Shown piece after piece: positions 14,553 through 62,387 of a DNA stretch of 64,000 nucleotides. The stretch is from assembly GCA_965216215.1 (NCBI GenBank), contig CBDCFO010000006.1, positions 208,626 to 272,625 of the forward strand. Direction: 5' to 3'. The notes beneath the pieces were generated by a model. The model had not been told where the DNA came from and did no database searches. It was given only the letters and a program-made list of their open reading frames with translations. The stretch is from Bryobacterales bacterium. GTDB taxonomy: Bacteria > Acidobacteriota > Terriglobia > Bryobacterales > UBA6623. The position numbers and the translations under genes are program-made. Position 1 is the first letter of the stretch; each line of letters begins with the position of its first letter.

Positions 14553-15572
<1,020 letters not shown>

Positions 15573-15739: not shown

Positions 15740-15768
15740 CTGTTCCCCGCACACGCGGGGATGAACCC
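15740..15768 (+). CRISPR. Orphan type I-E CRISPR repeat (single copy)
   Basis: CTGTTCCCCGCACACGCGGGGATGAACCC matches the 62051.. array repeat at 28 of 29 positions. It lies 27 nt downstream of the IS110 copy-1 right end. Confidence 0.6.
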
Positions 15769-25985: not shown

Positions 25986-27730
25986 CTAGTTGTCGCGTAC
26001 AGCAGGATCGACGCCCGCATCCAGGAGAGCCTCAATGCTTTCCGGCGAAATCCCCCATTCCGCCCTGTCATGCAGCGGCGTCTTCCCCTGCGCATCTCGA
26101 ACGTCGACCGACGCTCCCGCGTCGATCAGCGCGGAAATCAAGGTCGGATCCGTCGCGTAGAAGATCGGAGTCCTGCCGCGTCTGTCCCTTGCGTCGGGAT
26201 CGGCGCCCGCAGCCAGGAGCTTTCGCATGACATCGGGCTCTCCGCAGCAACTCGTTGCGAGATGCAAGGGAGTCTGGCCCTGCGTATCGCGAACGTCGAT
26301 TGAAGCTCCGTTCTCGATCAGCGCGACGACCGACTCCAACCGCTGGCGCCTGGTCGCCACGGCAAGGGGAGTTCGGCCAGCGGTGTCCTTGGCCTCTGAA
26401 TCCGCTCCGGATTGCAGGAGCGCGGTGATATGGCTCGAGGTGCCGCCTGTGGCAGCAACGTGGAGCGGAGTCTCGCCCGACTCGTTCCGGGCGTCAATGG
26501 ATGCACCTGCACTGAGCAGCGCCGATATGTTGGCGGGCAATTCCCCTCGTGCTGCCAGGTGCAAGGGGGACTGGCCCTTCGCATCGACCGATTCGACCGG
26601 CATCCCTGTGTCAAGCAACGCAGCAATGATCGCTGGCGTGCCACGAAGTGCGGCCCAATGAAGGGGGTCCAGCCAGTCTCGTCCCGCACCTCGACATCCG
26701 CCCCTGCCTCCACATGGTCCCGGCCAGCGCGCGCGCTTCACGCAGAGCGCCCTCTCCCGCGTCTTCGAGTCCAAGCACTTCCAGGCCCGCGTTGGTTGAC
26801 GTCGCACTCATCGCTGCCTCGTGCAACGCAGTCCGGCCGGCGCCATCCCGGGCTTCAAGGTCCGCCCCGGCGTCAAGCAACGCGGCGATGTTTCCAGAGA
26901 CCCTCAGGCGGTGCCACTCGGCTACCGGGGTATTGCCTGCGAACAGGGGTGAGAACATCAGAGCCGCGGCATTCAGCTCACCCACCGCCGCGTGCAGGGT
27001 CGTCTGCCCCGCGGAGTCCCGCGCCTTCACGTCGGCGCCTGCATCGAGGAGGGCGGCAATTTGGTCCGGTCCGCCGTTCCTGGATGCCAGGTGCAAGGCG
27101 CCCTTCGTGCTCGCGCCCTCCTCGACACACCGTCGGACGAGGGCTCCAGATGCGAATTGGAAGAAGTTGCCCTGGTTCCACTGCCCGCAATCCGCCAGGG
27201 TCATAGGGCTTGCGAGATCGGGGCCCGCCTCCTTGATCGCATCCCTCACAGCTCTGAAGACTTCGCTGGGATCAATGCTTTGTCGTCCGCCGATTCCGGT
27301 TCCGCGCCAGCCTCAAGCAGCGCCTCGATGATCTCGGGTCGCTCCGCTTGCCTGGCAACCGATAGCGGAGTCCAGCCAAGGCTCTCAACACGGGCGTTGA
27401 CATCGGCACCTGCTTCGCAAGCGCCGCAACGGCCTCCAGGCTGCGAGTTTCCGCGATGGCGTGGAGAGGAGTGAACCCAACCCGGTCGCGGGCTTTCGGA
27501 TCCGCGCCGCCCTCAAGCAGCGCCCGGACCTTTTCGAACTCCTCCTTATGACGCACATGATACAGCGGAGTCTGTTCGTTCTTGTCCCGGGCGTCAGGGT
27601 CGGCGCCAGCATCGATCAGGGCGACGATCACTTCGGCTAACCCCCATTTCGCGGCCCGGTGCAAGGGGGTCGCCCGTTCGGCGTCCTTCGCATTCGGGTC
27701 GGCACCGGCCCGAGCAAGAGCCGCAACCAT
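25986..27730 (-). pseudogene. Large ankyrin-repeat protein, 5'-truncated and split into three frames
   Basis: ORFs 27272..27790, 26611..27249 and 25986..26807 each carry canonical units (G.TPLH.AA..G....ALL.AGAD..ARD). Roughly 15 repeats are present in total. The 5' end abuts the IS110 fragment at about 27731. Confidence 0.75.
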
Positions 27731-28137
27731 CCTGTTCGGCCTCGCCCCCTTCGACCGCGACTCCGGACAGCACCGCGGCCACCGCTCCATCCGCGGCGGC
27801 CGCGCCCAGCCTCGCCATCTGCTCTACATGGCAGCCCTGACCGCGATCCGCTGGGAACCGGCCTCCCAGGTCTGCTACCAGCGCCTCGCCGCCGCCGGCA
27901 AGCCGCACAAGGTCGCCCTCGTTGCCGTCATGCGCAGACTCACCGGCCTGCTCGACACCCTCCTGCGCGAGAACCGCCTCTGGCAGCCCGCGCCGCCCGC
28001 CCGCGAACTGGAGGCCGCCGCGTGACACCGCTGCCGACCAGCCCCAGACCAACAGCCGGCTCTGTTGGGAAAACACGCATCAATTGCCCCTCGTCACCAC
28101 TTTTCCCCTAGAATCCGCTTGCCAAGAAACACGGAAG
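27731..28137 (+). mobile_element. IS110-family fragment (last ~98 codons plus right end)
   Basis: LFGLAPFDRDSGQHRGHRSIRGGRAQPRHLLYMAALTAIRWEPASQVCYQRLAAAGKPHKVALVAVMRRL...ELEAAA is highly similar to copy 2. The right end TTGCCAAGAAACACGGAAG matches the copy-2 right end. It is followed by CT (28138-39). Confidence 0.75.
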
Positions 28138-28165
28138 CTCAAGCTGCCGAACATGCTCGGCACAC
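28138..28165 (-). mobile_element. 28-nt 5' stub of a third group II intron copy, cut by the IS110 fragment
   Basis: The minus-strand sequence GTGTGCCGAGCATGTTCGGCAGCTTGAG is identical to the first 28 nt of intron B (31911 downward). Confidence 0.55.
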
Positions 28166-30037
28166 ATCGGGATAGGGGGAAGCCTCACGGCTCCACCCCT
28201 CCCACACCACCGTACATACGGGTCCGTATACGGCGGTTCGAACGGTGATGCTACTTCCGAACATGGAGGCTCGGCAGTCCCAGCGCGGTGAAATAGGCGT
28301 TCGGTAGGGCCAGAGCGAGTGCGGGACTGTTCGCCAAGCGCCAAGGTCCGTGCGCGCTGCCAGCCGCTTTGGCGGCCAGTTGCACGTTCACGCCCCGTCG
28401 GCGTAGCTCAGCATACCTCCGTCTCCCTCGTTTCCATTGCTTCCAAATCGCCGACCGCAGCCGCCTCCGGGTCCATTTTTCCAAGCGTGCCAGCACTGAA
28501 GGCGTCTCACACTTCCCGAAATAGCCGAGCCATCCCCGCCAATAGCGGGCTAGGTCCTCGACCATCCGTTCGTGGCTCACGCCCCGAGTCCGTCGCGTCA
28601 GCTCGCGCACCCGCCGCCGAAACCGCTGCACCGCTTGCGGTGCAATCCGCCGCTTCGGCTGGCCGTGTGCCGTGAAGCTGAAGCCGAGGAACTTCCGCTC
28701 CCATGGCCGCGCCACCGCGCTCTTGCTCTGGTTCACCCGCAAGCGGAGCGTCCCGGTGATGAAACGTGTCACGCTTTCCATCACGCGTTCCCCGGCGCGG
28801 CGACTGCTGACGTAGATATTGCAGTCATCCGCATACCGTGCGAACCGCAGCCCGCGTCGCTCCAACTCCCGGTCCAGTTCATCGAGCACGATGTTCGACA
28901 GCAAAGGGGAGAGCGGACCCCCTTGCGGGGTCCCCTCGTCCACCGTGCTCACCAGCCCGTCCTCCATCACACCGGCCGTCAGGAATGCCCGGATCAGCTT
29001 CAGCATCCGCTTGTCACCGATCCGTCGGGCCATCCGGGCCATCAAACGGTCGTGGTTCACTCGATCGAAGAATTTCTCCAAATCAAGATCTACCACCCAT
29101 CGCCGGCCCGCAGCCATCTGCTGCTGCGCCGCCTTGACCGCCTGATACGCCGAACGCCTCGGGCGAAACCCGTAGCTGTGTTCGGAAAACGTCCGGTCCC
29201 AGTGCTCCTGCAGGACCTGGGCCACCAACTGCTGGACGAATCGATCCAGCACCGTCGGTATGCCCAGCTTGCGCCTGCCCCCGCCCGGCTTCGGGATGTA
29301 CACCCGTCTCACCGGCTGCGGTCGGTAGGTCCCGCTCAGCAGCTGTTCCCGGATGGCCGGCCAGTGCTCGCGCAGGTGCCCGGGCAGATCGTCGACGGTC
29401 ATCCCGTCCACCCCCGGACTCCCCCGGTTTCCCCGGACTCGTGCCAGTGCCCGCTTGCAGTTGTCCCGCTCGCAGGCTCGCTCCATCCACTGTTCGTCTC
29501 TAGCCGGGCTTTCGTCCCGACGCCTCGCCGCGCTCGGTTCGGTCCCTTCCCCGGCCACTTCCGGGCCTTCACCCCTTCCATCGACCGGGAAGGCCAGCAC
29601 TAGCTGGATGTTCTGCCGCTTTCCGCTCACGAGAAACGCCGTCCTACTTGCCTCTCCGTTCGTTCAGGCCTTCGTCCTTGCCGGGACTACTATGCCGTCT
29701 GCTGACTTCTGCCGCCCGATCAGGTCGGATTGCTCCTTCCTCAGTCCAGAGTTCCGGACGGACGACAGATCTCCCGAGGTAAGCTCGTTCGCCTTCAGCG
29801 CACAACCGCCGGATTTACAACCAGCGCCCTTGATGGATCTGGACTTCGTCGTCAGTAGCCGACTCGTCCGACGCCGTATGCCTCGTATCCGGTTCTTGTC
29901 CATCGGCTCGCGCTTTTGTTCCACGCTTCCTTCAGACCCCGCCTCGCGACGACGCCCTTGCGCTTCACTAGGACTTCACCTCCATCAGGCTGTCCAAGGG
30001 ACTTTCACCCTCAAGCTAACGGGCATGCTCGGCACAC
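28166..30037 (-). mobile_element. Group II intron, copy A (1872 nt)
   Basis: The 5' end is GTGTGCCGAGCATGCCCGTTAGCTTGAGGGTGAAAGTCCC (30037 downward). The 3' end carries domain V/VI-like ...GAACCGCCGTATACGGACCCGTATGTACGGTGGTGTGGGAGGGGTGGAGCCGTGAGGCTTCCCCCTATCCCGAT (ending at 28166). An intact RT/maturase ORF lies inside. Confidence 0.8.
28251..29630 (-). CDS. Group II intron reverse transcriptase/maturase (no endonuclease domain evident)
   Basis: 459 aa with RT motifs (RRVYIPKPGGGRRKLGIPTVLDR, FSEHSYGFRPRRSAYQA, VVDLDLEKFFDRVNHD, GTPQGGPLSPLLSNIVL, RYADDCNIYV) and the maturase X domain (RYWRGWLGYFGKC). Confidence 0.9.
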   Translation of the reverse strand: MSGKRQNIQLVLAFPVDGRGEGPEVAGEGTEPSAARRRDESPARDEQWMERACERDNCKRALARVRGNRGSPGVDGMTVDDLPGHLREHWPAIREQLLSGTYRPQPVRRVYIPKPGGGRRKLGIPTVLDRFVQQLVAQVLQEHWDRTFSEHSYGFRPRRSAYQAVKAAQQQMAAGRRWVVDLDLEKFFDRVNHDRLMARMARRIGDKRMLKLIRAFLTAGVMEDGLVSTVDEGTPQGGPLSPLLSNIVLDELDRELERRGLRFARYADDCNIYVSSRRAGERVMESVTRFITGTLRLRVNQSKSAVARPWERKFLGFSFTAHGQPKRRIAPQAVQRFRRRVRELTRRTRGVSHERMVEDLARYWRGWLGYFGKCETPSVLARLEKWTRRRLRSAIWKQWKRGRRRYAELRRRGVNVQLAAKAAGSAHGPWRLANSPALALALPNAYFTALGLPSLHVRK

Positions 30038-30039
30038 CA

Positions 30040-31911
30040 ATCGGGATAGGGGGAAGCCTCACGGCTCCACCCCTCCCACACCACCGTACATACGGGTCCG
30101 TATACGGCGGTTCGAACGGTGATGCTACTTCCGGATCTGGAGTCGCGGCAGGCCGAGCGAGGCGAAGTAGGCGTTAGGCAGTGCATAAGAAAGAGCGGGG
30201 CTTGCGGCCAAGCGCCAAGGGCCGTGGGCGCTGCCAGCAGTTCGAGCCGCCAGCCCTACACGCACATCCCTGCGACGCAGTTCCACGTATCTCCGCCTCC
30301 CACGTTTCCACTGTTTCCAGATCGCCGACCGCAACCTTCGCCGGGTCCACCCCTCTAAGCTTGCCAGCACGTATGGCGTTTCGCACTTCCCGAAATAGCC
30401 GAGCCATCCCCGCCCATAGCGGGCTATGTCCTCGACCATCCGTTCGTGGCTCACGCCCCGAGTCCGTCGCGTCAGCTCGCGCACCCGCCGCCGAAACCGC
30501 TGCACCGCTTGCGGTGCAATCCGCCGCTTCGGTTGTGGGTCCGATGACAGGCTGAAGCCCAGGAACTTCCGCTCCCATGGCCGCGCCACCGCGCTCTTGC
30601 TCTGGTTCACCCGCAAGCGGAGCGTCCCGGTGATGAAACGCGTCACGCTTTCCATCACGCGTTCCCCGGCCCGGCGACTGCCCACATAAATGTTGCAGTC
30701 GTCCGCGTACCGTGCGAACCGCAGCCCGCGTCGCTCCAGCTCCCGGTCCAGCTCGTCGAGCACGATGTTCGACAACAAGGGTGAGAGCGGGCCCCCTTGC
30801 GGGGTCCCCTCGTCCACCGGGCTCACCAGCCCGTCCTCCATCACACCGGCCGTCAGGAATGCCCGGACCAGCTTCAGCATCCGCTTGTCACTGATCCGTC
30901 GGGCCATCCGGGCCATCAAACGGTCGTGGTTCACTCGATCGAAGAATTTCTCCAAATCAAGATCTATCACCCATCGCCGACCCGCAGCCATCTGCCGCTG
31001 GGCCGCCTCGACCGCCTGATGCGCCGAACGCCCCGGGCGAAACCCGTAGCTGTGTTCGGAGAACGTCCGGTCCCAGTGCTCCTGCAGGACCTGGGCCACC
31101 AACTGCTGGACGAATCGATCCAGCACCGTCGGTATGCCCAGCTTGCGCCTGCCTCCGCCCGGCTTCGGGATGTACACCCGTCTCACCGGCTGCGGTCGGT
31201 AGGTCCCGCTCAGCAGCTGTTCCCGGATGGCCGGCCAGTGCTCGCGCAGGTGCCCGGGCAGATCGTCGACGGTCATCCCGTCCACCCCCGGACTCCCCCG
31301 GTTTCCCCGGACTCGTGCCAGCGCCCGCTTGCAGTTGCTCCGCTCGCAGGCTCGCTCCATCCACTGTTCGTCTGTAGTCGGGCTTTCGTCTCGTCGTCCC
31401 GCCGTGTGCGGTTCGGTCCCTTCCCCTGTCGCTTCCGGGGCTTCACCCCCTCCGTCGACCGGGAAGGCCAGCACTAGCTGGATGTTCTGCCGCATTCCAC
31501 TCACGAGAAACGCCGTTCTACTCGCCCCTCCGTCCGTTCAGGCCTTCGCCCCTTGCGGGGCTACTATGCCGTCTGCTGACTTCTGCCGTCCGGTCAGGTC
31601 GGACTACTCCTCCCTCAGTCCGGAATCCCGGACGGACGGCAGACCTCCCGAGGTAAGTTCGACAGCCTTCAGCGCACAACCGCCGGATTTACAACCAGCG
31701 CCCTTGATGGAACTGGACTTCGTCGTCATCGGCCGACTCGTCCGACGCTGTATGCCTCGTATCCGGTTCTTGTTCATCGGCTCGCGCCTTTGCTCCACGC
31801 TTCCTTCAGACCCCGCCTCGCAGCGACGCCCTTGCGCTTCGCTAGGACTTCACCTCCATCAGGTTGTCCAAGGGACTTCCACCCTCAAGCTGCCGAACAT
31901 GCTCGGCACAC
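30040..31911 (-). mobile_element. Group II intron, copy B (1872 nt), inserted directly after a terminator
   Basis: The 5' end is GTGTGCCGAGCATGTTCGGCAGCTTGAGGGTGGAAGTCCC at 31911. The 3' end ...CCCTATCCCGAT is at 30040. Only 2 nt (TG) separate it from copy A. Confidence 0.8.
30125..31504 (-). CDS. Group II intron reverse transcriptase/maturase
   Basis: 459 aa, near-identical to 28251..29630 with scattered substitutions, and carrying the same RT and X motifs. Confidence 0.9.
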   Translation of the reverse strand: MSGMRQNIQLVLAFPVDGGGEAPEATGEGTEPHTAGRRDESPTTDEQWMERACERSNCKRALARVRGNRGSPGVDGMTVDDLPGHLREHWPAIREQLLSGTYRPQPVRRVYIPKPGGGRRKLGIPTVLDRFVQQLVAQVLQEHWDRTFSEHSYGFRPGRSAHQAVEAAQRQMAAGRRWVIDLDLEKFFDRVNHDRLMARMARRISDKRMLKLVRAFLTAGVMEDGLVSPVDEGTPQGGPLSPLLSNIVLDELDRELERRGLRFARYADDCNIYVGSRRAGERVMESVTRFITGTLRLRVNQSKSAVARPWERKFLGFSLSSDPQPKRRIAPQAVQRFRRRVRELTRRTRGVSHERMVEDIARYGRGWLGYFGKCETPYVLASLEGWTRRRLRSAIWKQWKRGRRRYVELRRRDVRVGLAARTAGSAHGPWRLAASPALSYALPNAYFASLGLPRLQIRK

Positions 31912-31913
31912 CG

Positions 31914-31938
31914 AAAAAGGGGGGCGTTTCCGCCCCCC
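31914..31938 (-). terminator. Rho-independent terminator of the lipoprotein gene
   Basis: The minus strand reads GGGGGGCG-GAAA-CGCCCCCC followed by TTTTT. It lies 47 nt after the stop at 31985. Confidence 0.8.
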
Positions 31939-31984: not shown

Positions 31985-34900
31985 CTACGGCATTAGATCC
32001 GCTCCGTAGACACCCTCGAGAGCGTCGCCGCCCTCCACGCCAGTCACACTCCAGGTGCCGATGATGCCCAGCGGGCCGTCGATGACCTTGCCGACGAACT
32101 GGCCGGCGATGGCACCGGTCTGCGTGAGGTCCGGTTGCCGGATATCCGTGTGCCGCACCCGAGTGGCAGTGCTGTCCGTACTGATGAAGGACAGCGTGTT
32201 GCCTTCCCCGGCCCTCATCACGTTGATTGCGTCAGTCCCGAACAGGATGGTGTCCACGCCATGACCGTCAGGGTTGGTCTCTGCGACGACTTGACTCACG
32301 TACAACACGCCCTTGTCGGTCCGCAAGTTGCTGACCGAGGCGGCGATGGTGCCGACAGCTTGGTCCGACCCAGCTTCCCCGAGATCCGTCCGTCCCCCAG
32401 GTAACGTCGACCTGGATGGTGCCCTCGTAGTAGGTGTTGATATTGTCACCTACAGTGGTGGACCGGGCGATCGTCGCTCCCTCGTAGGTGGCCTTGCCGC
32501 CGAGCGGGAAGTTCGGATCGTTCACGGCGTACGCCGAGGCTGCCAGCGGGCTGTAGGCGAACCTGCCGTTGTCATCATCTTCCGCCATCGGTGCTTCGGT
32601 CGCATTGCCCGATGCGACGCGGTTCCAGGCGCCGAACCGAGTGTACGTGGTGCTCCCGTATTCGATCGTGGTCTTGGACGCGACGCGGCCGAAGATGGCA
32701 TTGAGAACAGGGGGTTTTCCTTCGACGATGGCTGAAGCCGTACCGTACAGAGCCCCGTCCTCCGCGACTGCGGTCCTGAACTTGGCGACGGAAGACAGCG
32801 CGTCAAGCACGTCGGCGATGATTTCCTTGGCGTCGGCATCGAGATCGCTGTCGTCGGCAGTGTTCGCGGCCTCGGCGTAGGTGGCGGCTGGGAAGATCTC
32901 TAAGCCGCGCTCGCCGACCACCATGTTGATCGCGGTCGCCAAAAGGCCCCAGACCGCGGTCCTACCGTTGTCAGCAGCCGTCTCGTCCTCCAGTTCGTCC
33001 AGTGCGATGAAGGCGTTCAGCCGCTCGAGCAGGCTGTTGATCTCCTTGATCGTCGAGGCGACGAAGGCGTCTCCGTCCATCACCGCCCCGCCGGTGTCGA
33101 ACAGGTCCGCGCCTTTCACTGTGACCGCTTTCACGGGTGGATCGTCATTGGGGGCCGCGGGCACGATCGTGATCACGCCAGTCTTGGCGTTCACGGCGCT
33201 GATGCCCGGTGGTAGGGTTTCGTCGTTCATGCCGAACCACGTCATGGCTATCCCGCCGCCCGAGACCGGCGGTGCCGTTTCGGGCACGTCGGCGCCTTTC
33301 TCCGCGCCGAACGCCGCGGTGAGGTTCTCCGCGTCATCGGTGCTGGCATCGATCGCCCAGGTGCCGATGGCCGCCGCGCCGTTGCCGACGAACTGGCCCG
33401 CGAAGGAGCTGCCGGATTCGTCGGTGTCGGCATCGTTATCGTCGGCCCGGTCCGCGAGAATTGTGGCCTGCGGGCTGCCCGGCTCCGCCGTGAAGACGAC
33501 CTGGCTGGTCCTCTCCGCATCCTTCATGAAGTCACCGTCGTTTCCGATGGTCGCTTCCGCGAGGATGATGGCGGCGACCGTGCCGAAGCCGTAGGTGAAG
33601 CCGTCGCCGTCCCCGTCCACCAGGTTCTCGACCAGGCCGCTCACGCGCTTGCCGCGGAACCGGACCTGGAGCGAGATGTCGCCGTTGTAGACCGTCTCCC
33701 CGTCCATGCTGATGGCCATTGTCCGGCCATTGTATTCGGCGGCACCGGCTTGGGGCAGGTCCGCGAACTTCGCGGCCTTCATCGGGCTGTAGGCGTACGC
33801 GCCCATTGAGGCGCTCGCGAGCTTGACGGCGGCGGTGTCGGTCGACTCCTTCGAGTAGACGCCGAAGCGCGTGTTCGCCGTCCGCGCCATGTGCACGGTC
33901 GCGGTCGAGGCGATGGCGTTGAATGTCGCGGTGGCGTTCTTGGCGACGGTGGCGGCGTTGGCCCCGCCGGCGGTAGAGCCCTCGAAGATTCCGTCGTCCG
34001 CGGCCGCGGCCAGGAATCCATCCTCGCTCGACAGTGCCGCAACGATCTTGTCGAGCGTCTCGATCATTTCTGCGAGCGCAGCCAGGCCGAGCCGGTTCTC
34101 CGCAAGCGCATCGATGTGGTCGTAGGCGTCGTCGGCCTCCGTGTCAGCGCCGTCGAGGTCCCCGAAGACGTCGTCGAGGGCCGTGTCGATGGCCTTCCAC
34201 TTCTCCCGGAACTGGACGCTGAAATCGGTCTGCTCGGCGAGATCATCGTCTTTGGGGTTCTCGTGCGCGTTCACGGCTCTCAGGCCCTTGATCTGGGCGG
34301 CCAGCGTGCTCACTGTCTCGAGTACGCCGCCCTTGCCGGCAATGAGGTTTTCGCCCTCGACCGTGGACTCGCCGTCCTGGAACAGGTCACCGATCGGATG
34401 CTTGTCGCCGTTGATCGTGATGATCGTGCCCGCTTCGTTGACGCCTTCGGTCTTGGCGTTGTCAACGCTCACCACGTCTTTTTTGTTGGCCACTCCAGTG
34501 CCGATGCTGAACCCCCTCGCTTTCGCGGCAGCCTGGGTGTTGATCGCCTCTTCGTACTGCACTCCCATCAGGTTGCCGTCCTCGTCCATGTGCACGCGGA
34601 AGTTGCCGTCCGGGGACATCACGTCGCCCATGCCGTTCTCGTCGAGAGTCTGGTCAGCGAGGCCCACGATGGTGTAGCCGCCGTCGTTCTCGTTGGCCGA
34701 GGCGGTCAGGTTGGTGCCAGCGATCATCATCGTGACCGGGACGTACATCGAACTCCAGCCCTCGTCGCCATAGGTCAGCGTGTAGCTGTTGCCGTTTGCC
34801 GACATGACCGTTCCGCCGGTGCTGAACGCATTGTCGGGGTCGGTCCACCATCCGCCCATCTCGTCGCGGGTCAAATCCTGCGTCTCGCCGCTCGTGCCGA

Positions 34901-36344
34901 GGTCGATCGTGGCGATGAAGTGCACGTACGCGGCACTCCAGATGCCGGTTTCGGCATCCATCGTGACGGTGTAGGTGTTGGTCCTGTCGTCAAACATGAC
35001 CATGACCTCGCCGCCGCTCATGAACACTTCGCCGTCCTTGTGCCACGTCATCTGGTCCTCCTGGAGCACCAGCATGATCGTGCCGCCTTCCGTGCCGAGC
35101 ATGACGCTGACAGGATCGGACATGTACGATGCCATGATCGTCCCGTCCTCGCCCATCATGAGCGAGTAGCCCGCACCGTTCTCGGCCTTGGCGTAGGCGC
35201 CGTCGCCGACCATCATTCCGTTGTACATGTAGCCGCCGGCTTCCACCTGCGTGACCGTGATGCTCTCGCCGCTCATGCCGAGCGTGACTTCCATCATGTT
35301 CGGCGCGAACGTGGCGGTCCACATGCCGTCATCAGACAGCATCAAGGAGTAGTTGTTGGCACCCATCGTGTACGTGTCGCCGTTGTTGGCGGGCTGTTCC
35401 GGGGCGTACCACCAGCCCCTCATTTCGTCCTGGATCAGCGTGATGGTGTTGCCGCTCCCACCGAGGGCGACGTCCACCATGGGCTTGTTGAATTCGGCCA
35501 TCCAGCCGCCTTCGCCCATAGTGACGGTGTAGGAACGTTCGTTGGCCATGACCACCGTTCCGGTCATGAACTCTGCGCCGTCGCGCATGTAGGTCATCTG
35601 GTCCTCGGCGAGAGTCAGCATGAGCTCTCCGCCAAGGTCACCGAGCATGACGGTCACCGAGCTCGGGATGTACACGACCATCGGGCCATCCGCTCCGAGC
35701 GCGACGCCGTAGGTGGCGCCGTTGGCTGCCATGGCGGTGGTGTCCGCCGTAATGGCCTCGCCGTTCAGCGAGAAGCCGCCAGCCTCCATCTGCACGATCG
35801 TGACGCTGTCGCCGCTGGCGCCGAGCGCAACCTCATGCATGGCCGGCGCGAACGTTGCCATCCACACGCCGTCCTCCATGGTCAGCGTGTAGTTGCCGTT
35901 CGCCGCGGTGTGCGTGCCACCGCTTTCAATGGCTGTGCCGTCGATCCCGTAGCCGCCAGTCTCAAGCTGCATGAGCGTGACGCTGGCGCCGCTGCCGCCG
36001 AGCGCGACATCCATCGACCCCGGCGCGAACGCCGCAGTCCAGGTGCCGCCGTCAAGGGTCAGCGTGTAGTTGCCGTTGTCCGCGGCATGCGTGTCTCCGG
36101 TAGATACCGCTTCCCCATTCAGTGTGAATCCACCGGCTTCGGTGGTCATCAGGGTAATGTTTTGTCCCGACGCTCCCAGGGCAACCTCTACGGCTTCCGG
36201 CTGGAATGGCGGTGGTGCCGGCGGTGGTGCCGGCGGTGGCGCTACGGCGACGGGTTCATCCCCACCGCACGCGACTAGGCCGAACGCGAGCAGGGCGCTC
36301 ATTAAAAGAAGCCCCATTGTGCGCTTGACTCGATTGCTGTTCAT
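31985..36344 (-). pseudogene. Giant Met-rich repeat lipoprotein with two TbpB-like beta-barrel domains (frameshift near 32390)
   Basis: The ATG at 36344 has an AAGGAG 6-7 nt upstream. The lipobox reads LLAFGLVAC|GG, followed by a PPPAPPPAPPP linker. About 8-9 tandem ~60-aa modules follow (V.LG.SG..IT....EAGG..LNGE.....T..A.NGNYTLT...G.W.A.FAP). There are two helical acidic linkers. Two barrels carry ...Y.G......G.I.L.V.F....SG....AGQFVGNGAAAIGTW...AAFGAEK and ...IAGQFVGKVIDGPLGIIGTW...GVYGADL. The last ~150 aa lie in ORF 31985..32449, in a different frame. Confidence 0.7.
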
Positions 36345-36955
36345 GCGTTTCTCCTTGTTTTCTGTGACTGTGGTTGCAGAAAGCATCCAATTTTCAATAA
36401 AACATCCGCCGCCAAACGTCCTTTATTACGCTCGAAGGCCAAGTCTTTTCATTTTGACACCGTTTTTTTTTGGATGTCAATAGCTTGGGGAACTATTTCA
36501 GGTCAAACTGTGGTGTCGGTGCGCCCGTGCCACCTGCAGCAGTCGCTGACAGGGGCAACTCCCCGGCTGCAATCCCCGCACTCGCCGCACCTAACCCGTC
36601 ACAAGCTCCGAACCCCAGAACAGACCCCGTCGCTCGACCCTCGGACCCGGTAGCGCCCGGCGCCAAGACCCTCCAGAACCGCATCATCCCCCCTTTCGCT
36701 GGACTTCCCGCGCAATTGAACTCGCAGTCGTAATGTCTACTATACAACGAGATACGGTATCTTCAGACCGTCCAGGAACGGCCATGGCCAGCACTGTTCC
36801 GGTCACTCCGGCACCGACCGTCGCCCGACGCACGCCGAGTCTGGAGAAGGCATCCTGGCGCGAAGCTCCTGCGATAACGCTCGCATTGCCTGTCACCGGT
36901 CCGCAGCCGTCCAGGGCCCGCCCCGACTCACGGCTGACCTCTGCCATTTACCGAA

Positions 36956-47774: not shown

Positions 47775-48746
47775 ATGACACCTCCCACACCCACTGTAGT
47801 CGCCGGCATCGACGTCGGCAAGGCTAAGCTCGACGCCCACATTCTCGCAGGCGGAGTTGAGCGCCAGTTTGACAACACCAAGACCGGTCGCCGCGCCCTG
47901 CGCAACTGGCTGCTCAAGCACGACGTCACCCGGGCCGTATTCGAACCCACCGGCCGCTACCATCGCAACCTTCACCAGTGCCTTGCTGAAGCTGGCTTCG
48001 AGACCGTCCTGGTCAACCCCTTGCGCTCCCGGCGCTTCGCCGAAGCCATAGGAAGGCTCGCCAAGAATGACCGCGTCGATGCCGCCATGCTCGCTCGCTT
48101 TGGCCTCCTCGACGGCCTGGAAGCCACCCCGCCCCAGCCGCACAACCTCCAGCTGCTCAATGACTTGCTCGCCCTCCGCCGCAAACTCCTCGAGCAGCTC
48201 GGCGCCCTCCGCAAGCTCGCCGCCGAACTCGACCCCGAGGCCGCCGGCTGCCTCGGCACCACCCTCAAGGCCCTGCAGGCCGACATCGCTGCCTGCGACC
48301 GCCGCATGCGCCACTGCATCGCTGCCGACGCCGCACTCTCCCGTCGCGACGCCATCATCCAGTCGATCCCCGGCTTCGGCCCCGTCAACGCCGCCTCCCT
48401 CTGCGCCGCCATGCCCGAACTCGGCAGCCTCGGCCGCCGCAAGGCCGCCTCCCTCTTCGGCCTCGCCCCCTTCGACCGCGACTCCGGCCAGCACCGCGGC
48501 AGCCGCGCCATCCGTGGTGGCCGCGCCCAGCCCCGCCACCTGCTCTACATGGCCGCCATGTCCGCGATTCGCCACGAGCCTGCCTCCAAGGCCTGCTACC
48601 AGCGCCTCACCGCCGACGGCAAACCGCACAAAGTTGCTCTCGTCGCTGTCATGCGCAAGCTTGCCGGCCTGCTCGACACCCTCCTCCGCGCAGACCGCCT
48701 CTGGCTGCCCGAGCCGCCCAACTGCGAACTGGAGGCCGCCGCGTGA
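47775..48746 (+). CDS. IS110-family (DEDD) transposase/recombinase, copy 2
   Basis: 323 aa with VAGIDVGKAKLD...FEPTGRYH...KNDRVDA, and SIPGFGPVNAASLCAAMPELG...FDRDSGQHRGSRAIRGGR. Confidence 0.9.
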   Translation: MTPPTPTVVAGIDVGKAKLDAHILAGGVERQFDNTKTGRRALRNWLLKHDVTRAVFEPTGRYHRNLHQCLAEAGFETVLVNPLRSRRFAEAIGRLAKNDRVDAAMLARFGLLDGLEATPPQPHNLQLLNDLLALRRKLLEQLGALRKLAAELDPEAAGCLGTTLKALQADIAACDRRMRHCIAADAALSRRDAIIQSIPGFGPVNAASLCAAMPELGSLGRRKAASLFGLAPFDRDSGQHRGSRAIRGGRAQPRHLLYMAAMSAIRHEPASKACYQRLTADGKPHKVALVAVMRKLAGLLDTLLRADRLWLPEPPNCELEAAA

Positions 48747-48861
48747 TACGTCTGCTGGCATCCCCCCAACCTAAGGTCGGCACTGCGAGGAAACCCCGCC
48801 TCAATCGCCTCTCATCACCACTCTTCCCCGAAATTACCCTTGACAAGAAACACGGAAGCTT

Positions 48862-49174
48862 AAGTCAATGCGCTTCTGCAACTAAGTCAATGCCATTGGC
48901 GGCGCAGCTGGCCACCGCGATCCGGATCGAGCCCAACGGCAAGCATCCGGCGCGCGACGCCCAGGCCGGCATGTACGTGCTGCGCAAACGTCTGGCCCAG
49001 GCGGGCCTACGCCCCAGTTGGGAGACGATCCACTGCCAGCTCGCCGGCTGGGTCCGCCTCACCACCTCCCTGCGCGCGGCCGACGGCCGCTGGATCCAGT
49101 GCCGCCAGGACTCCCGCCCGGACGCCAAAGCCGCAGAACTGGCCCAGGCCATCGGCCTGGTGCCGCGCCTGTAG
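48862..49174 (+). pseudogene. C-terminal tail of an IS4/IS1634-like transposase (fragment)
   Basis: ...AQLATAIRIEPNGKHPARDAQAGMYVLRKRLAQAGLRPSWETIHCQLAGWVRLTTSLRAADGRWIQCRQDSRPDAKAAELAQAIGL resembles the C-terminal tail architecture of the IS1634 transposase at 63146.. (LQTLLDHLGSLTLNQVTL...RPTPLQAKAFALLEV). Confidence 0.4.
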
Positions 49175-51060
49175 TGTGCCGAGCATGCCCGTTAGCTTGA
49201 GGGTGAAAGTCCCTTGGACAGCCTGATGGAGGTGAAGTCCTAGTGAAGCGCAAGGGCGTCGTCGCGAGGCGGGGTCTGAAGGAAGCGTGGAACAAAAGCG
49301 CGAGCCGATGGACAAGAACCGGATACGAGGCATACGGCGTCGGACGAGTCGGCTACTGACGACGAAGTCCAGATCCATCAAGGGCGCTGGTTGTAAATCC
49401 GGCGGTTGTGCGCTGAAGGCGAACGAGCTTACCTCGGGAGATCTGTCGTCCGTCCGGAACTCTGGACTGAGGAAGGAGCAATCCGACCTGATCGGGCGGC
49501 AGAAGTCAGCAGACGGCATAGTAGTCCCGGCAAGGACGAAGGCCTGAACGAACGGAGAGGCAAGTAGGACGGCGTTTCTCGTGAGCGGAAAGCGGCAGAA
49601 CATCCAGCTAGTGCTGGCCTTCCCGGTCGATGGAAGGGGTGAAGCCCCGGAAGTGGCCGGGGAAGGGACCGAACCGAGCGCGGCGAGGCGTCGGGACGAA
49701 AGCCCGGCTAGAGACGAACAGTGGATGGAGCGAGCCTGCGAGCGGGACAACTGCAAGCGGGCGCTGGCACGAGTCCGTGCGAACCGGGGGAGTCCGGGTG
49801 TGGACGGGATGACCGTCGACGAGCTGCCCGGTCACCTGCGGGAGCACTGGCCGGCCATCCGGGAACAGCTGCTGAGCGGGACCTACAGGCCGCAGCCGGT
49901 GAGGCGGGTACACATCCCGAAACCGAGCGGTGGCAGGCGCAAGCTGGGCATACCAACCGTGCTGGATCGATTCGTCCAGCAGTTGGTGGCCCAGATCCTG
50001 CAGGAGCACTGGGACCGGACGTTTTCCGAACACAGCTACGGGTTTCGCCCGGGGCGTTCGGCGCATCAGGCGGTCGAGGCGGCGCAGCAGCAGATGGCTG
50101 CGGGCCGGCGATGGGTGGTAGATCTTGATTTGGAGAAATTCTTCGATCGAGTGAACCACGACCGTTTGATGGCCCGGATGGCCCGACGGATCGGTGACAA
50201 GCGGATGCTGAAGCTGATCCGGGCATTCCTGACGGCCGGTGTGATGGAGGACGGGCTGGTGAGCACGGTGGACGAGGGGACCCCGCAAGGGGGTCCGCTC
50301 TCACCCCTGCTGTCGAACATCGTGCTCGACGAACTGGACCGGGAGTTGGAGCGACGCGGGCTGCGGTTCGCACGGTACGCGGACGACTGCAACATTTATG
50401 TGGGCAGTCGCCGGGCCGTGATGGAAAGCGTGACGCGTTTCATCGGTTGGGAACCGTGATGGAAAGCGTGACGCATCACCCGCTTGCGGGTGAACCAGAG
50501 CAAGAGCGCGGTGGCGCGGCCATGGAAACGGAAGTTCCTGGGATTCAGCCTCACGGCACACCGCAAGCCGAAGCGGCGGCTCGCGCCGCAGACGGTGCAG
50601 CGGTTCCGGCGGCGGGTGCGGGAACTGACGCGACGGACTCGGGGCGTGAGTCACGAACGGATGGTGGCGGACCTGGCCCGCTATTGGCGGGGCTGGCTCG
50701 GCTACTTCGGGAAGTGCGAGACGCCATCGGTGCTGGCAAGCTTGGAACGATGGACCCGGCGACGGCTGCGGTCGGCGATCTGGAAACAGTGGAAACGAGG
50801 GAGACGGAGGTACGCCGAGCTACGCCGCCTGGGCGTGGACGTGGAACTAGCCGCACAAACGGCTGGTAGCGCCCACGGCCCCTGGCGCATGGCCAATAGC
50901 CCTGCTCTCCACCGCGCCCTCTCGAACGCCTACTTCGCTGCGCTGGGGCTACCGGGACTCCATCTTCGGACCTAGCTCAACCGGTCGAACCGCCGTATAC
51001 GGACCCGTATGTACGGTGGTGTGGGAGGGGTGGAGCCGCGAGGCTTCCCCCTATCCCGAT
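49174..51060 (+). mobile_element. Group II intron, third full-length copy (plus strand), with disrupted IEP
   Basis: The 5' end GTGTGCCGAGCATGCCCGTTAGCTTGAGGGTGAAAGTCCC is at 49174. The 3' end ...CTTCCCCCTATCCCGAT is at 51060. Confidence 0.8.
49581..50975 (+). pseudogene. Group II intron RT/maturase disrupted by a local duplication/frameshift
   Basis: ORF 49581..50459 ends right after YADDCNIYVGSRRA. The 21-nt sequence CCGTGATGGAAAGCGTGACGC is present twice (50416..50436 and 50454..50474). The maturase part resumes in ORF 50484..50975. Confidence 0.85.
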
Positions 51061-52167: not shown

Positions 52168-52256
52168 GGGTTCCCCCGCCTATGCGGGATAGACCCTTGC
52201 CCCGAAACCAGTCTTTCTGTATGTAGGTGGTTCCCCGCACACGCCGGGATGAACCC
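52168..52256 (+). CRISPR. Degenerate CRISPR remnant with a variant I-E-like repeat
   Basis: The first repeat, 52168..52196, is GGGTTCCCCCGCCTATGCGGGATAGACCC. A 31-nt spacer follows. The second repeat, 52228..52256, is TGGTTCCCCGCACACGCCGGGATGAACCC. A further very degenerate repeat-like stretch lies near 52295. Confidence 0.55.
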
Positions 52257-52687: not shown

Positions 52688-53440
52688 ATGAAGAACGCGA
52701 TTGAACTCGGCCTGCTGCTGTCCGCCTGCGCGGACAACGGGTTCGACGACGGCATTCGCATCGACGCCGAGCTTGAGCCGCTTACGGGCGGGGGCGGCCC
52801 GGTCGAGCCCGCCGTCTACGTGGGGGGGGCCTACCAAGACGACTGTCGATGGGCCAGGCCCGAGGACACGGATTGTCGTGATTGACAACGTTCCGTCACA
52901 AGCGAACCGCTTGGAGGATGCCCTTCGACACCATCGAAAAGCGACGCGCATGCCGGAATTCGTCCGGGACCTGTCGGGATTGACCGGCCTCCCGGTCCAT
53001 CTGCCACGGAGCTTGTCGAGCCTGCAGTTTCCGCACCGTAATGCCGACGGCTATCCTCGCGACGCCAGGCTCGGCGATCAAGACTTCGTCAAGACGGATC
53101 TGGGACGGTCGATTTTCGGGGCGACAGCGCAGAGGTGCGGCCCCCTGATCGCCTGGTTTCCCCAGGCGTTGCTGTACGGGTTCTGGCAGTCCCACCTCGG
53201 CAAGAAGCGAGCCAGCACCAAGCACGCCCGCGCCTGGGTGTCCGAGATCGCAGGCTGGAATCCCGGGCCAACGGATGTTGCCAGGGTTCTTGGCCTCAAG
53301 GGCGACCCGCTCAACCTGAACGCTGACGAGCGGATCACATCTAGCCCGGACAACCGCTTGGCGTGGACGTTCGGCACCGGCGCTGTCGAGGGGGGCAAGC
53401 AAGACAGGCTTTCGGAGATCGGCCACGGCCAGGCCCGCGC
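52688..53440 (+). pseudogene. Csb1/Cas7 of type I-G (formerly I-U; GSU0053 family), frameshifted and 3'-truncated
   Basis: MKNAIELGLLLSACADNG...ELEPLTGGGGPVEPAVYVGG is followed by a frame change near 52860. The sequence then reads VVIDNVPSQANRLEDAL...SSLQFPHRNADGYPRDA...FPQALLYGFWQSHLG...ARAWVSEIAGW...SEIGHGQ. These motifs (SQANR.E.AL, PHR.AD, P..L.FG.W.S, SEI.G) are as I recall them for the Csb1 family. Confidence 0.5.
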
Positions 53441-53611
53441 CGGCAGCCGAGCCGCCATTGCCTGGGATTGCTGTCGAGGCCCGGAGGGGCTCGGGAACGC
53501 CGAACCGAGGGTCCTCTCGGCCGGCGCGGCCAGGATGGGATTCGCATGCGGAGCACGAGTCGGCGGATGCTCCGCTCGAGGCCCCGAGACGCAGCTGTCG
53601 AGGTTGAATCA

Positions 53612-56215
53612 ATGAGGGGCAAAGGACCGGAACTGATCAGCGGGTGGCCCGGCAAGCAGATCGAGGGCCGCACTCATCCTGCACTCTGGCACATGCTGGA
53701 TGTGGGAGCGGTCGCCACCTGCCTGCTGGCGCGTCGGTCGCTTACCGGAGACAGGCCTGCCGACCAGGCTGCGGCTCTCCTTGTCGTCCTCCACGATCTC
53801 GGCAAGTTCAGCTTCTCCTTTCGCGCGATACTGCTTGGCCGGCCCTACACGGGTCTCCGCCATTGGCAGCATAGCTACCGGCTGCTGCAGGACCATGACG
53901 ACGCGCTCGCCGATGTGGTCGGTGCGACACCCGGTGTCCGGAAGACCCTCTATGCCGCCGTGGCCGGGCATCACGGAGGTCCGCCGCAGCACTTGGAGAG
54001 CCGCACGCATACGGCCCAGTCCGCCCAGATCGGAGCCGAGGGGTCGCGTGCCGCGAGAGAGGCAATCGACGCGATCATTCCGCTTTTCGAGGGCGCATCG
54101 CTGGATGGCATGTCCGAGCCGGAAGCGCGGAGGCTGTCGTGGGCGCTTTGCGGGCTCACGGTGCAGGCCGACTGGATCGGATCGAATCCGGAATGGTTCG
54201 GGCCGAAGGATGCCGGAACCTCGGTTGGGAACTACTGGCAACAGGCCCTGGCCCGGGCGGAAACCGCGATTTCCGAGGCGGGATTGCATCATGCCCGGCC
54301 GCTTCCCGGCGGTGCAGCGAGAGTCCTGCACGGAACCGCCGCTCCCCGGCCGATGCAGGCGGCAGCAGCCGACGTGGACCTGCCGGGAGGGCCCCTGCTT
54401 GCCCTGATCGAAGATGCGACCGGCGCCGGCAAGACCGAGGCCGCGCTGATCCTGGCCGCGCGCATGATGGCCGCCGGAAAGGGGGACGGATTGTTCTTCG
54501 CCCTGCCGACGATGGCGACTTCGAATGCCATGCTGGCGAGGCTCGAGGCCATTGCGCCGCGGCTGTTCGCAGGCCGCCCGTCCCTGGCGCTGACGCACGG
54601 AAGGGCATGCATGAACGAGCTCTTCGCCGAGATCAGGGGACGCGACGCCTCCGATCCCGGTACCGGGGCCACGTGCGGGCGCTGGCTGGCCGACGACCGG
54701 CGGCGGGTCCTGCTCGCCGACATCGGCGTCGGCACCATCGACCAGGCACTGATGGCGGTCTTGCCGACCCGTTTCAACACGCTCCGGCTCCGGGCGCTGT
54801 CAGGACGGATCCTGATCGTCGACGAGGCCCATGAATTCGGGTCCTACATGGAGGCGCAGTTGCAGCGTCTGCTGCAGTTCCAGGCCATGCTGGGCGGCTC
54901 GGCGATCGTCATGACGGCGACCTTGCCGCTGGGAATGCGTGACGGGTACGCGAAGGCGTTCCAGAAAGGCCTCCGGGTCCGCCGGCCGCGCGAGGTGGCG
55001 GGCGACGCCTACCCGATGCTGACAGTCGTCGGGCGCGGAACCGACAGCGAACGGCCCGATCCGGTTCCGGCGACTTGCCGCGACGTCAAGGTGCATCGCC
55101 TTGAGGACGAGGATGCCGCGATGACCCTGTTGAAGTCCGGAGCGGGCCGGGGCGCGGCCTGCACGTTGATCCGGAACACGGTGGACGCGGCGATCGACGC
55201 GGTCTTAGTGCTGCGTGGGGCGGGAGTCGACGCGAACCTGCTGCACGCGCGGTTCGCGGTGGTTGACCGGCTGCGGCACGAAGCGGCCCTGCAGGCTTGT
55301 TTCGGGCGGGACGGCGTCGGCAGGGCAGGACGGGTCCTGGTCGCGACGCAGGTGGTCGAGGCGTCGCTCGACCTGGACTTCGACCTGATGATTTCCGACC
55401 TGGCGCCGATCGGGTCGCTGATCCAGCGAGCGGGCCGGCTGTGGCGGCACATGGACCTGCGCCCGGCGGCGCGGCGGCCCGTGGCGGGCCCGGACCTGCA
55501 CGTGCTCGCGCCCGACCCGGATGTGGTGCCGGACGCGAACTGGCTGAAGCGCCGCCTTGGCGCAGGGGCGCTGGTCTACCCGCAGGACGTCCAGTGGCGC
55601 ACCGCCAAGGCGTTGTTCGACAAGGGATCGATCCGTTCCCCCGGCGGCTTGCGCGACTTGATCGAGGCCGTGCACGGGAGAGACTTGCATGAGGTCCCCG
55701 AGGCGCTCAGCGGAGCGGAGATTGAAACGCTGGGGCGGCAGATGAGCGAGGCGCAGCAGGCATTCAACCAGGTGCTCGACGCGGAGGATGGGTACGACCA
55801 GCCGCAGATGCAGCGAGTGTTCGACGATGACCGGTTCCCGACCCGCCTCGGCATTCCGCAGGTGACCCTGCGGCTCGCCCGGGAGGCGGGCGGGCGGCTG
55901 GTGCCCTGGGCCGGCGAGGGCCCGCTCGGCTGGCAGGCGTCCGAGGTGCGGGTCTCTGCCGCGCGCTACCGGAACCTTGCGGGCGTGGACCAGGACCGGC
56001 CCGAGATCGCGGAGGTGCGAAACAGCTGGCCCGACTGGATGCAGGCTTCGGTGCTCGTAGCGCCGGTCGGGGAAAACGGATTGATCTGCGAGGGAATGCA
56101 CTACGATCGCGCCCTCGGAATCGTGTTCAAGGGCGGCCGGGAACACTCGATAGCGTCCCGCCTTGCCTGCCAGTCGGCTGCATTGATTCCTGGATCCACA
56201 GGGGCGTCCAGATGA
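53612..56215 (+). CDS. cas3: Cas3 (type I-E; HD nuclease plus SF2 helicase)
   Basis: The ATG at 53612 is the likely start, and the 53363 ORF start is an upstream extension. The HD domain shows HMLDVGAV...LHDLGKFSFSFR...AVAGHHG. The helicase shows DATGAGKTEAAL, LPTMATSNAM, LIVDEAHEF, TATLP, ATQVVEASLDLDFD and QRAGRLWRH. Confidence 0.9.
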   Translation: MRGKGPELISGWPGKQIEGRTHPALWHMLDVGAVATCLLARRSLTGDRPADQAAALLVVLHDLGKFSFSFRAILLGRPYTGLRHWQHSYRLLQDHDDALADVVGATPGVRKTLYAAVAGHHGGPPQHLESRTHTAQSAQIGAEGSRAAREAIDAIIPLFEGASLDGMSEPEARRLSWALCGLTVQADWIGSNPEWFGPKDAGTSVGNYWQQALARAETAISEAGLHHARPLPGGAARVLHGTAAPRPMQAAAADVDLPGGPLLALIEDATGAGKTEAALILAARMMAAGKGDGLFFALPTMATSNAMLARLEAIAPRLFAGRPSLALTHGRACMNELFAEIRGRDASDPGTGATCGRWLADDRRRVLLADIGVGTIDQALMAVLPTRFNTLRLRALSGRILIVDEAHEFGSYMEAQLQRLLQFQAMLGGSAIVMTATLPLGMRDGYAKAFQKGLRVRRPREVAGDAYPMLTVVGRGTDSERPDPVPATCRDVKVHRLEDEDAAMTLLKSGAGRGAACTLIRNTVDAAIDAVLVLRGAGVDANLLHARFAVVDRLRHEAALQACFGRDGVGRAGRVLVATQVVEASLDLDFDLMISDLAPIGSLIQRAGRLWRHMDLRPAARRPVAGPDLHVLAPDPDVVPDANWLKRRLGAGALVYPQDVQWRTAKALFDKGSIRSPGGLRDLIEAVHGRDLHEVPEALSGAEIETLGRQMSEAQQAFNQVLDAEDGYDQPQMQRVFDDDRFPTRLGIPQVTLRLAREAGGRLVPWAGEGPLGWQASEVRVSAARYRNLAGVDQDRPEIAEVRNSWPDWMQASVLVAPVGENGLICEGMHYDRALGIVFKGGREHSIASRLACQSAALIPGSTGASR

Positions 56216-56282
56216 TCGGAGCGGGGAGAGAGCGCCTAGGGCGCCAGAACAAGTTGCCCGGCATCACAAGAGCGTCACGGCC

Positions 56283-57769: not shown

Positions 57770-57773
<4 letters not shown>
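56283..57773 (+). CDS. cse1: Cse1/CasA (Cas8e), Cascade large subunit
   Basis: MLNLISDPWIPVVRRGG...RPDLNLACLELLVGL parallels the E. coli CasA N-terminus (NLLIDNWIPVR...DMELAALALLVC). The product is 496 aa. Confidence 0.85.
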
Positions 57774-60045
<2,272 letters not shown>

Positions 60046-60049
<4 letters not shown>

Positions 60050-62050: not shown

Positions 62051-62387
62051 GTCTGTTCCCCGCACACGCGGGGATGAACCGCCCTCTTGTTACGGCACCC
62101 TTCTCGCACATGGCTGTTCCCCGCACACGCGGGGATGAACCGGGATGGAGCATCCGTGCAGCGTCTTCAAGAAGGCTGTTCCCCGCACACGCGGGGATGA
62201 ACCGGTCCTTCGAGCTGGGCTATCCTCACAAAGCCCCTGTTCCCCGCACACGCGGGGATGAACCGGCTTCGAGGCCACCCGATTCCCCCGCCTTGAACCG
62301 TTCCCCGCACACGCGGGGATGAACCGAGGCTGTTACCGCCAGCTCGGGCCATGGTGCCCTGTTCCCCGCACACGCGCACGCACCAAC
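62051..62387 (+). CRISPR. Type I-E CRISPR array: 6 repeats (29 nt), 5 spacers (32-33 nt)
   Basis: The repeat CTGTTCCCCGCACACGCGGGGATGAACCG occurs at 62051, 62112, 62174, 62235 and 62297 (the last with 1 mismatch). A degenerate last repeat at 62359 reads CTGTTCCCCGCACACGCGCACGCACCAAC. Spacers are 32, 33, 32, 33 and 33 nt. Confidence 0.95.

Follow-up and report, generated by a model that had tools for sequence, protein, structure and literature searches.

Predicted class C group II introns stacked head-to-tail behind one intrinsic terminator in a Bryobacterales genome

We analysed a stretch of 64,000 nucleotides (nt) from the genome of a Bryobacterales bacterium (Acidobacteriota; GenBank assembly GCA_965216215.1, contig CBDCFO010000006.1, positions 208,626 to 272,625 of the forward strand), hereafter the window, in which group II introns lie head-to-tail behind a single rho-independent terminator. 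On the minus strand, the terminator is followed by CG, a full-length intron (B), the dinucleotide TG, a second full-length intron (A), a short 5' stub of another copy and a fragment of an IS110-family element (Table 1). We conclude that this arrangement is most probably a stack of class C (IIC) retroelements that was built by separate retromobility events at one intrinsic terminator. An initial annotation of the window had described the same stack, and re-reading the sequence showed that its coordinates for the terminator, both introns and the stub (28138-28165) were correct. It had counted two full copies in the stretch and had missed a third, copy D, which was found by Rfam matches on the plus strand.

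The terminator reads GGGGGGCG-GAAA-CGCCCCCC-TTTTT from 31938 to 31914 on the minus strand and is the sole strong terminator-like site between 26 and 34 kb, with a DNA fold energy of -12.6 kcal/mol (z = -2.3). Intron B starts 7 nt past its 8-9-bp G+C stem, behind the TTTTT run. Both introns are 1872 nt long, as previously reported, B having GTGTG at its 5' end and CCCGAT at its 3' end. In both, matches to the Rfam group II models (group-II-D1D4-3, D1D4-1 and domain V/VI) exceeded the gathering thresholds, and those to domain V/VI terminated precisely at 30040 in B and at 28166 in A. The sequence that follows A with a 0-nt spacer, GTGTGCCGAGCATGTTCGGCAGCTTGAG (28165..28138), equals the first 28 nt of intron B (28/28) and abuts the IS110 fragment. 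Identity and abutment had both been claimed before; the length needs correction, because the last 6 nt (CTCAAG) overlap the IS110 terminal CT[C/T]AAG, and the stub is therefore 22-28 nt long. Since A and B are only 90.8% identical (9.2% difference), the tandem is not an assembly duplication or a mis-assembly of a single copy. Repeats of about 1.9 kb are hard to assemble, and many of the metagenome junctions described below lie near contig ends. Against a collapsed or mis-joined repeat, to which we give a negligible chance, stand the 9% divergence of the copies, the unique junctions, and the same architecture in long contigs of metagenome-assembled genomes (MAGs; loci L003 and L020) and in 77 independent metagenome contigs.

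Protein and RNA features support the prediction, made already in the initial annotation, that A and B are bona fide class C introns. The two 459-amino-acid (aa) open reading frames (ORFs) keep an intact YADD motif and contain the Pfam domains RVT_1 (residues 112-318) and GIIM (residues 334-409/412) and nothing else, the protein ending about 47 aa later. Both copies thus encode an intact reverse transcriptase (RT)/maturase with no endonuclease domain, as had been stated. In a phmmer search against the PDB, the top match was the GsI-IIC RT (E = 4.7e-145, 487 bits, residues 49-456). The IIC maturases of E. rectale and R. intestinalis scored 294-355 bits (E. rectale 355), LtrA (IIA) 144 bits and T.el4h (IIB) 129 bits; the class call for the protein is a comparison of similarity scores and not a tree with class A-F references.

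The RNA carries the hallmarks that have been described for class IIC, namely a CGC triad, a domain V distal stem that is 2 bp short, an 11-nt AGGAA bulge, an exon-binding site 1 (EBS1) of 3 bp, no EBS2, and an EBS3 (Toor et al. 2006, PMC1702495). Domain V (CCGCCGUAUACGGACCCGUAUGUACGGUGG) has CGC instead of AGC; in its Rfam alignment the distal stem/loop has a gap of 4 nt, and the distal stem is shorter by 2 bp. Between the first two helices of the RF02001 match lie 11 unpaired nt with AGGAA (GUCUGAAGGAA), which are conserved in an alignment of 42 sequences. The consensus fold of these 42 relatives contains 103 pairs, of which 65 have compensatory changes, and describes a small RNA whose domain I is closed by nt 6-10 and about nt 262-266.

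To define the exon pairings, we located intron ends in relatives with nhmmer and aligned the first 420 nt of 76 introns for covariation. Searching species-representative genomes with the B protein had yielded 80 loci, mostly in Acidobacteriota MAGs and with 62-76% protein identity; the lineage is one of high G+C without close representatives in genome collections. Exon positions -1, -2 and -3 were paired with intron nt 181, 182 and 183 in 95, 91 and 92% of the 76 introns, with mutual information values of 1.11, 0.56 and 1.19 and 5-6 pair types, and the consensus fold places nt 181-183 in a terminal loop. Exon positions -4 to -15 showed neither a covariation signal nor a run of complementary columns in this set, which argues for an EBS1 of 3 nt and no EBS2. 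For EBS3, counts of complementarity were uninformative because invariant G columns pair with T and C, and it was mutual information that resolved nt 223. Exon +1 and nt 223 form T-A in 18 introns, C-G in 30 and T-G in one, with two mismatches; three tandem cases have G at +1. As all pairings were counted from the boundaries given in the initial annotation and covary exactly at -1/-2/-3 and +1, the positions 31911, 30040, 30037 and 28166 are confirmed.

Applied to the window, the pairings indicate an order of arrival. In intron B, EBS1 CGA pairs 3/3 with TCG, its intron-binding site 1 (IBS1), and EBS3 A pairs with T. Intron A, with EBS1 UAC, pairs 3/3 with GTG in the flank that would have existed before B arrived (TTTTTCG plus TG). 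With its present flank TTG (the 3' end of B plus TG) it pairs 2/3 only. Copy D, whose flank is GTA/T (the slash marks the insertion point here and below), pairs 3/3 through the same EBS1 UAC and also forms the EBS3 pair. EBS3 is A in all of A, B and D; B and D face T at +1, and A faces G, a mismatch. Because the EBS1 of A fully fits only the pre-B flank, A must have been in place before B, and B landed between the terminator and A. On this evidence A preceded B, with the newest copy nearest the terminator, in line with the earlier proposal of repeated homing in which new arrivals come to lie upstream; the same logic holds in relatives.

We propose that the stack was built as follows. A first copy, now the stub, would have inserted after ...TTTTTCGTG. 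Intron A (EBS1 UAC with GUG) would then have inserted at the same bond, the mismatch between its EBS3 (A) and the first base (G) of the resident copy being tolerated. Intron B (EBS1 CGA with UCG; EBS3 A with T) would have come next, 2 nt nearer the hairpin at TTTTTCG/TG, leaving the TG spacer. Finally, a later IS110-associated rearrangement would have left only about 25 nt of the oldest copy. The alternative placing of the stub, insertion after A, is less likely: a copy inserted after ...GAT would require EBS1 AUC, which matches neither local allele (CGA, UAC), and the stub is thus more likely the oldest member, preceding A.

Terminator targeting is typical of the lineage. Among 39 unique sites of the closest subgroup, 34 are preceded by a perfect GC-rich hairpin with a stem of 6 bp or more that ends 2-14 nt upstream (mode 6-8 nt), and 25 have the hairpin plus at least 3 T in the tail. 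At random positions of the same loci, the corresponding frequencies were 7.3% for the hairpin and 1.9% for hairpin and T tail. A distant subgroup (L040-L077; 5' GTGTGCTGGGCA, EBS1 AAC/GAC, EBS3 G) is always found at ...GCCGC-NNNN-GCGGC-TTCGTT/CAA in different genomes, which suggests a specific repeated target (attC-like or another element) and not terminators. Four further loci (L013, L046, L053 and L055) have 3.6-3.9 kb between intron ends; the additional DNA, about 1.8-2 kb, lies either between domain I-III and the RT ORF or within the intron and may be a nested element.

Stacks like that of the window were recovered repeatedly. Head-to-tail pairs are present at four MAG loci (L001, L003, L006 and L020), L001 consisting of a full copy and a 53-nt stub, and an exact-pattern junction scan gave 78 head-to-tail junctions on 77 metagenome contigs. 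Their spacers are 0 nt in 42 cases, T in 22, G in 4, TG in 4 and something else in 6. Stacks of three are present at L110 and L137. Of the stack members in the metagenome loci L081-L157, roughly one in four is an ORF-less derivative of about 620-650 nt, in either position; a preference of these derivatives for the upstream position was considered and dropped (12/47 upstream, 9/44 downstream).

The pairings in these stacks also bear on the direction of growth. In 11 of 18 readable pairs, the EBS1 of the downstream copy pairs 3/3 with the 5' flank of the upstream copy plus spacer; compared with the 3' end of the upstream intron plus spacer, this flank fits better in 12 pairs, equally well in 3 and worse in 3. 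Decayed 5' stubs stand at the downstream end of 8 of 55 metagenome junctions, and likewise in the window and in L001, which fits downstream copies being older. At L003 (4938-9962), four elements lie behind one terminator in the order ORF-less (about 625 nt, 5' GTACG), full, ORF-less and full, and the EBS1 of the full intron, AAA, matches the terminator T-run and not the end of the neighbouring intron. The ORF-less intron (EBS1 CAA) sits after TTTTTTTG, the final G of which is the first base of the full intron; each ORF-less intron at this locus is thus inserted after G1 of a full intron, in a twintron-like manner.

A stack might also grow downstream, if domain VI mimicked the terminator hairpin and new copies inserted after the 3' end of the resident, in which case B would be the oldest and the stub the youngest member. 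Domain VI is indeed a G+C-rich hairpin with a short tail, and a new copy would find a normal 3'-exon pyrimidine as IBS3, with no A-G mismatch. At L005 (5578) and L006 (1508-1582), introns with EBS1 UCG follow ...CGA and are possible exceptions that use an intron 3' end as target, the flank being a domain VI-like hairpin in L005 and, by Rfam, a domain V/VI remnant of another intron without its last base in L006. We nevertheless consider downstream growth extremely unlikely for the window. The EBS1 UAC of A matches GAT plus TG at 2/3 only, the AUC that a stub after ...GAT needs is in neither local allele, and an EBS1 complementary to GAT was found in none of the 30 zero-spacer downstream copies from metagenomes; fits to the upstream intron end are mostly 1-2 of 3. 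L003 contradicts it as well, the downstream position of the decayed stubs speaks against it, and on the EBS1 tests we rejected the idea that domain VI stands in for the hairpin. Spacer bases were not used as evidence of direction: 31 of the 36 non-zero spacers start with T, which both growth models predict.

Growth at the terminator side leaves the zero-spacer junctions to be accounted for. They are the commonest class (42/78) despite the EBS3 mismatch, and the same EBS3-G mismatch as at the A/stub junction is found in 18 of 22 zero-spacer stacks, with A as EBS3 of the upstream copy by our reading of the junction comparisons and U only in L153. Strong end-to-end template switching is a property of IIC RTs such as GsI-IIC, and head-to-tail circles of intron RNA are known. 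One event could have produced the A/stub junction, either through an RT that reached the 5' end of one intron RNA and jumped to the 3' end of another or through the copying of a circular intron RNA. Only zero-spacer junctions could be explained by template switching, and even there we hold it to be quite improbable: it leaves the B/A junction, with each copy paired to a site of its own, without explanation, and in 22 of 29 stacks the upstream copy has a precise 5' junction that matches its own EBS1 3/3. Moreover, two different RNAs would be required, as the first 28 nt of A and the stub differ at 4 positions.

The three full-length introns are mosaics, which points to gene conversion or RT template switching among copies. 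A and B are 99-100% identical in three blocks (nt 601-800, nt 1401-1500 and the 3' part from about nt 1800 onwards), while their divergence outside these is 7-30%; A and D are 100% identical over nt 1-400 and 99% over nt 401-600. Copy D is inserted at ...CGCCTGTA/T, and its first G completes the TAG stop of the upstream ORF. Its own RT ORF stops at 292 aa as a result of a 9-nt deletion and a 24-nt duplication that carries a stop. The sequence upstream of D contains no T-run and only a weak hairpin, which does no better than shuffled sequences (z = -1.4).

The shared blocks of A and B would also be expected if a single insertion had been followed by tandem duplication, through unequal recombination or slippage, and then by divergence and gene conversion. 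Tandem repeats form readily through recombination, and L003, where a composite unit repeats at a period of 2512-2513 nt, resembles such a duplication. We judge this very unlikely in the window, where A and B differ by 9.2%, their distinct EBS1 alleles each match their own offset on the terminator tail, and the three junctions (CG/, TG/ and 0 nt) are unlike. Copy D further carries the allele of A at a matching site, which argues that the two alleles belong to independently mobile lineages. We infer that the elements may be active, the indirect signs being intact ORFs with YADD, differing codons between the A and B ORFs (61 synonymous and 44 non-synonymous) and several site-matched copies.

Several observations weigh against separate insertions of class C introns at this terminator. 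The class assignment is based on similarity scores and not on a full phylogeny. Copy D shows that insertion takes place also without a T-run terminator. The blocks of 99-100% identity that A shares with B and with D show recombination among copies, by which the EBS1 loop might in principle have been replaced once a copy was inserted. As the stub has lost its own EBS1, we can only infer when it arrived. The A/stub junction needs an EBS3(A)-IBS3(G) mismatch at a pair that is kept in 49 of 51 single-copy sites; this step is less well explained than the others and the least understood of the series.

Introns of class IIC have no endonuclease; they reverse-splice into DNA, where their target consists of a stem-loop, a short IBS1 and a single-base IBS3 (Toor 2006, PMC1702495; PMC4424553). 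Hairpin and IBS1 lie wholly in the 5' exon, and insertion alters only the single IBS3 base. With all recognised bases but one upstream of the point of entry, the site survives insertion. The initial annotation, in which each arrival regenerated the site, was therefore right about re-use but not in its wording, since the site is never lost. Re-use could take two forms, either insertion at the identical bond despite a mismatched IBS3, which leaves no spacer, or a shift of 1-3 bases to a +1 position that is T, giving spacers that begin with T. Stacking is thus a predictable consequence of the IIC target rules. In a read-through transcript, from which the elements would be expressed, B would splice first, since only its removal would recreate ...CGUG and give A its full IBS1 back.

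The stack shares much with class C introns known to follow terminators (B.h.I1, O.i.I1 and GsI-IIC; PMC1702495), with which it has in common the protein type without endonuclease domain, the RNA hallmarks and an insertion point 7-9 nt past the terminator stem. Unlike these, the present introns belong to a high-G+C lineage and several copies are stacked on one terminator. A close parallel in geometry is the IIB1 intron EcKTE56.groEL, a second copy of which enters precisely at the boundary of the 5' exon and the resident copy's first base, re-integration being possible because recognition lies almost wholly in the 5' exon (PMC12584367). That intron targets the groEL stop codon, was studied in over-expression assays and has an EBS3(U)-G wobble (PMC12584367). 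Its tandem junction has the same geometry as A/stub, whereas EBS3 in A, B and D is A, which mismatches G1, so that the U-G wobble explanation does not transfer. Intron B, unlike EcKTE56.groEL, avoids the mismatch by a 2-nt shift to a +1 T.

Nested twintrons of Methanosarcina acetivorans have been described as 'perpetual homing sites' that are balanced by deletion and recombination (PMC4424553). They share with the present stack the repeated insertion at a self-renewing site outside genes. They differ in that the M. acetivorans introns nest inside other introns, whereas those described here stand side by side at a host terminator, L003 being the only nested case. The group IIC-attC introns of integrons are of the same class and likewise target a DNA stem-loop, but neither an attC nor an integron is present at this locus; the conserved short hairpin target of the distant subgroup, GCGGC..TTCGTT/CAA, is a trait resembling theirs. 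In the searchable literature, the coverage of which is incomplete, we came across no account of natural IIC tandem stacks, and the word 'tandem' is absent from the 2015 review by Zimmerly and Semper. The mobile element itself is an ordinary one, and its arrangement, although seldom described, seems to be common.

The terminator that carries the stack belongs to a large lipoprotein gene, as had been noted. The stop TAG is at 31987-31985 and the hairpin 46 nt downstream of it. The gene reaches this stop only through a change of reading frame near 32.3-32.45 kb, about 300-460 nt before its end. The protein has an N-terminus with a lipobox (MNSNRVKRTMGLLLMSALLAFGLVAC, ...LVAC) and many repeats of the 'ALGxSGxxxT...GG' type, and a Pfam search with it gave no family match. 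A single AGQFVG...IGTW motif (E = 0.05) makes the second frame, the 154-aa ORF 32449..31985, a weak candidate for the true continuation of the gene. The frame change reflects either a pseudogene or a sequencing error. That read-through transcripts of the gene would carry the introns is plausible.

Other mobile elements occur in the window. The fragment that cuts off the stub represents the 3' 413 nt of an IS110 element, with 82.6% identity to the terminal part (about 48452..48864) of a full copy; its ORF (27582-28025) matches Transposase_20, and the ORF of the full copy (47775-48746, plus strand) matches DEDD_Tnp_IS110 and Transposase_20 in Pfam. With a second full IS110-family transposase gene at 14553-15572 (plus strand), the window holds two full copies and one 3' fragment. 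One full copy is found some 430 nt upstream of intron D and the fragment adjoins the stub, so that IS110 and introns co-locate twice in 64 kb. Adjoining the fragment are two genes for ankyrin-repeat proteins on the minus strand (25986-26807 and 27272-27790), the second of which starts inside the fragment and was probably 5'-truncated by rearrangement. A type I-E CRISPR-Cas system with Cas3, Cse1, Cas7/CT1975, Cas5, Cas6e-like and Cas1 genes extends over 52701-61679 on the plus strand. Its surroundings include a CRISPR array of at least 6 repeats with a 61-nt period at 62051-62376 (CTGTTCCCCGCACACGCGGGGATGAACCG), and lone repeat copies are present at 52230-52256 and 15742-15768.

Table 1. Coordinates of the intron stack and associated features in the window
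Feature	Position	Strand	Remarks
Large lipoprotein gene, two ORFs (36386..32268 and 32449..31985)	31985..36386	-	Its terminator hosts the intron stack
Intrinsic terminator	31914..31938	-	8-9 bp G+C stem, GAAA loop, TTTTT; stem-loop recognised by the introns
IBS1 of intron B (TCG)	31912..31914	-	Pairs 3/3 with EBS1 CGA of B; G31912 doubles as the -3 base of the original IBS1 of A
Intron B, full-length class C group II (predicted), 1872 nt, latest arrival	30040..31911	-	Rfam RF02001, RF01998, RF00029; EBS/IBS covariation
EBS1 of intron B, CGA (intron nt 181-183)	31729..31731	-	Terminal loop G-C-NNN-U-G-A
EBS3 of intron B, A (intron nt 223)	31689	-	Pairs with T30039; top mutual information with exon +1
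RT/maturase ORF of intron B, 459 aa, no endonuclease domain	30125..31504	-	Pfam RVT_1 and GIIM only
TG spacer	30038..30039	-	T30039 is IBS3 of B; TG and G31912 form the original IBS1 (GTG) of A
Intron A, full-length class C (predicted), 1872 nt, older than B	28166..30037	-	Rfam; 90.8% identity to B
EBS1 of intron A, UAC	29855-29857	-	
EBS3 of intron A, A	29815	-	
ORF of intron A, 459 aa	28251-29630	-	
5' stub (22-28 nt) of another copy, B-type 5' end	28138..28165	-	28/28 match to B; joined directly to the 3' end of A
IS110-family 3'-terminal fragment truncating the stub	27731..28143	+	82.6% identity over 414 nt to the end of the full IS110
Copy D, third full-length intron, 1887 nt	49174..51060	+	Rfam matches; EBS1 UAC as in A; truncated protein ORF

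Together, the stack may be regarded as a natural record of how a terminator-targeting retroelement handles a site that has already been used, with an order of arrival that can be read from sequence alone by comparing each EBS1 with the flank as it was before later insertions. The single-base EBS3 pair would appear to be dispensable in vivo more often than single-copy sites suggest. Tentatively, occupied terminators may serve this IIC lineage as reusable landing pads, a behaviour that is possibly undescribed. If this is true, stacks of two to four copies would be common in soil and peat bacteria and would grow at the terminator side even with EBS3 mismatched to the G1 of the resident. Adjacent copies would swap segments by gene conversion, and the splicing order would be enforced, the upstream copy having to leave before the next one regains its IBS1. 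For genome annotation, the stack is a warning that arrays of RT genes behind one terminator may be stacked IIC introns and not gene duplications. As the elements sit behind a terminator, they are probably of little importance for the biology of the host.

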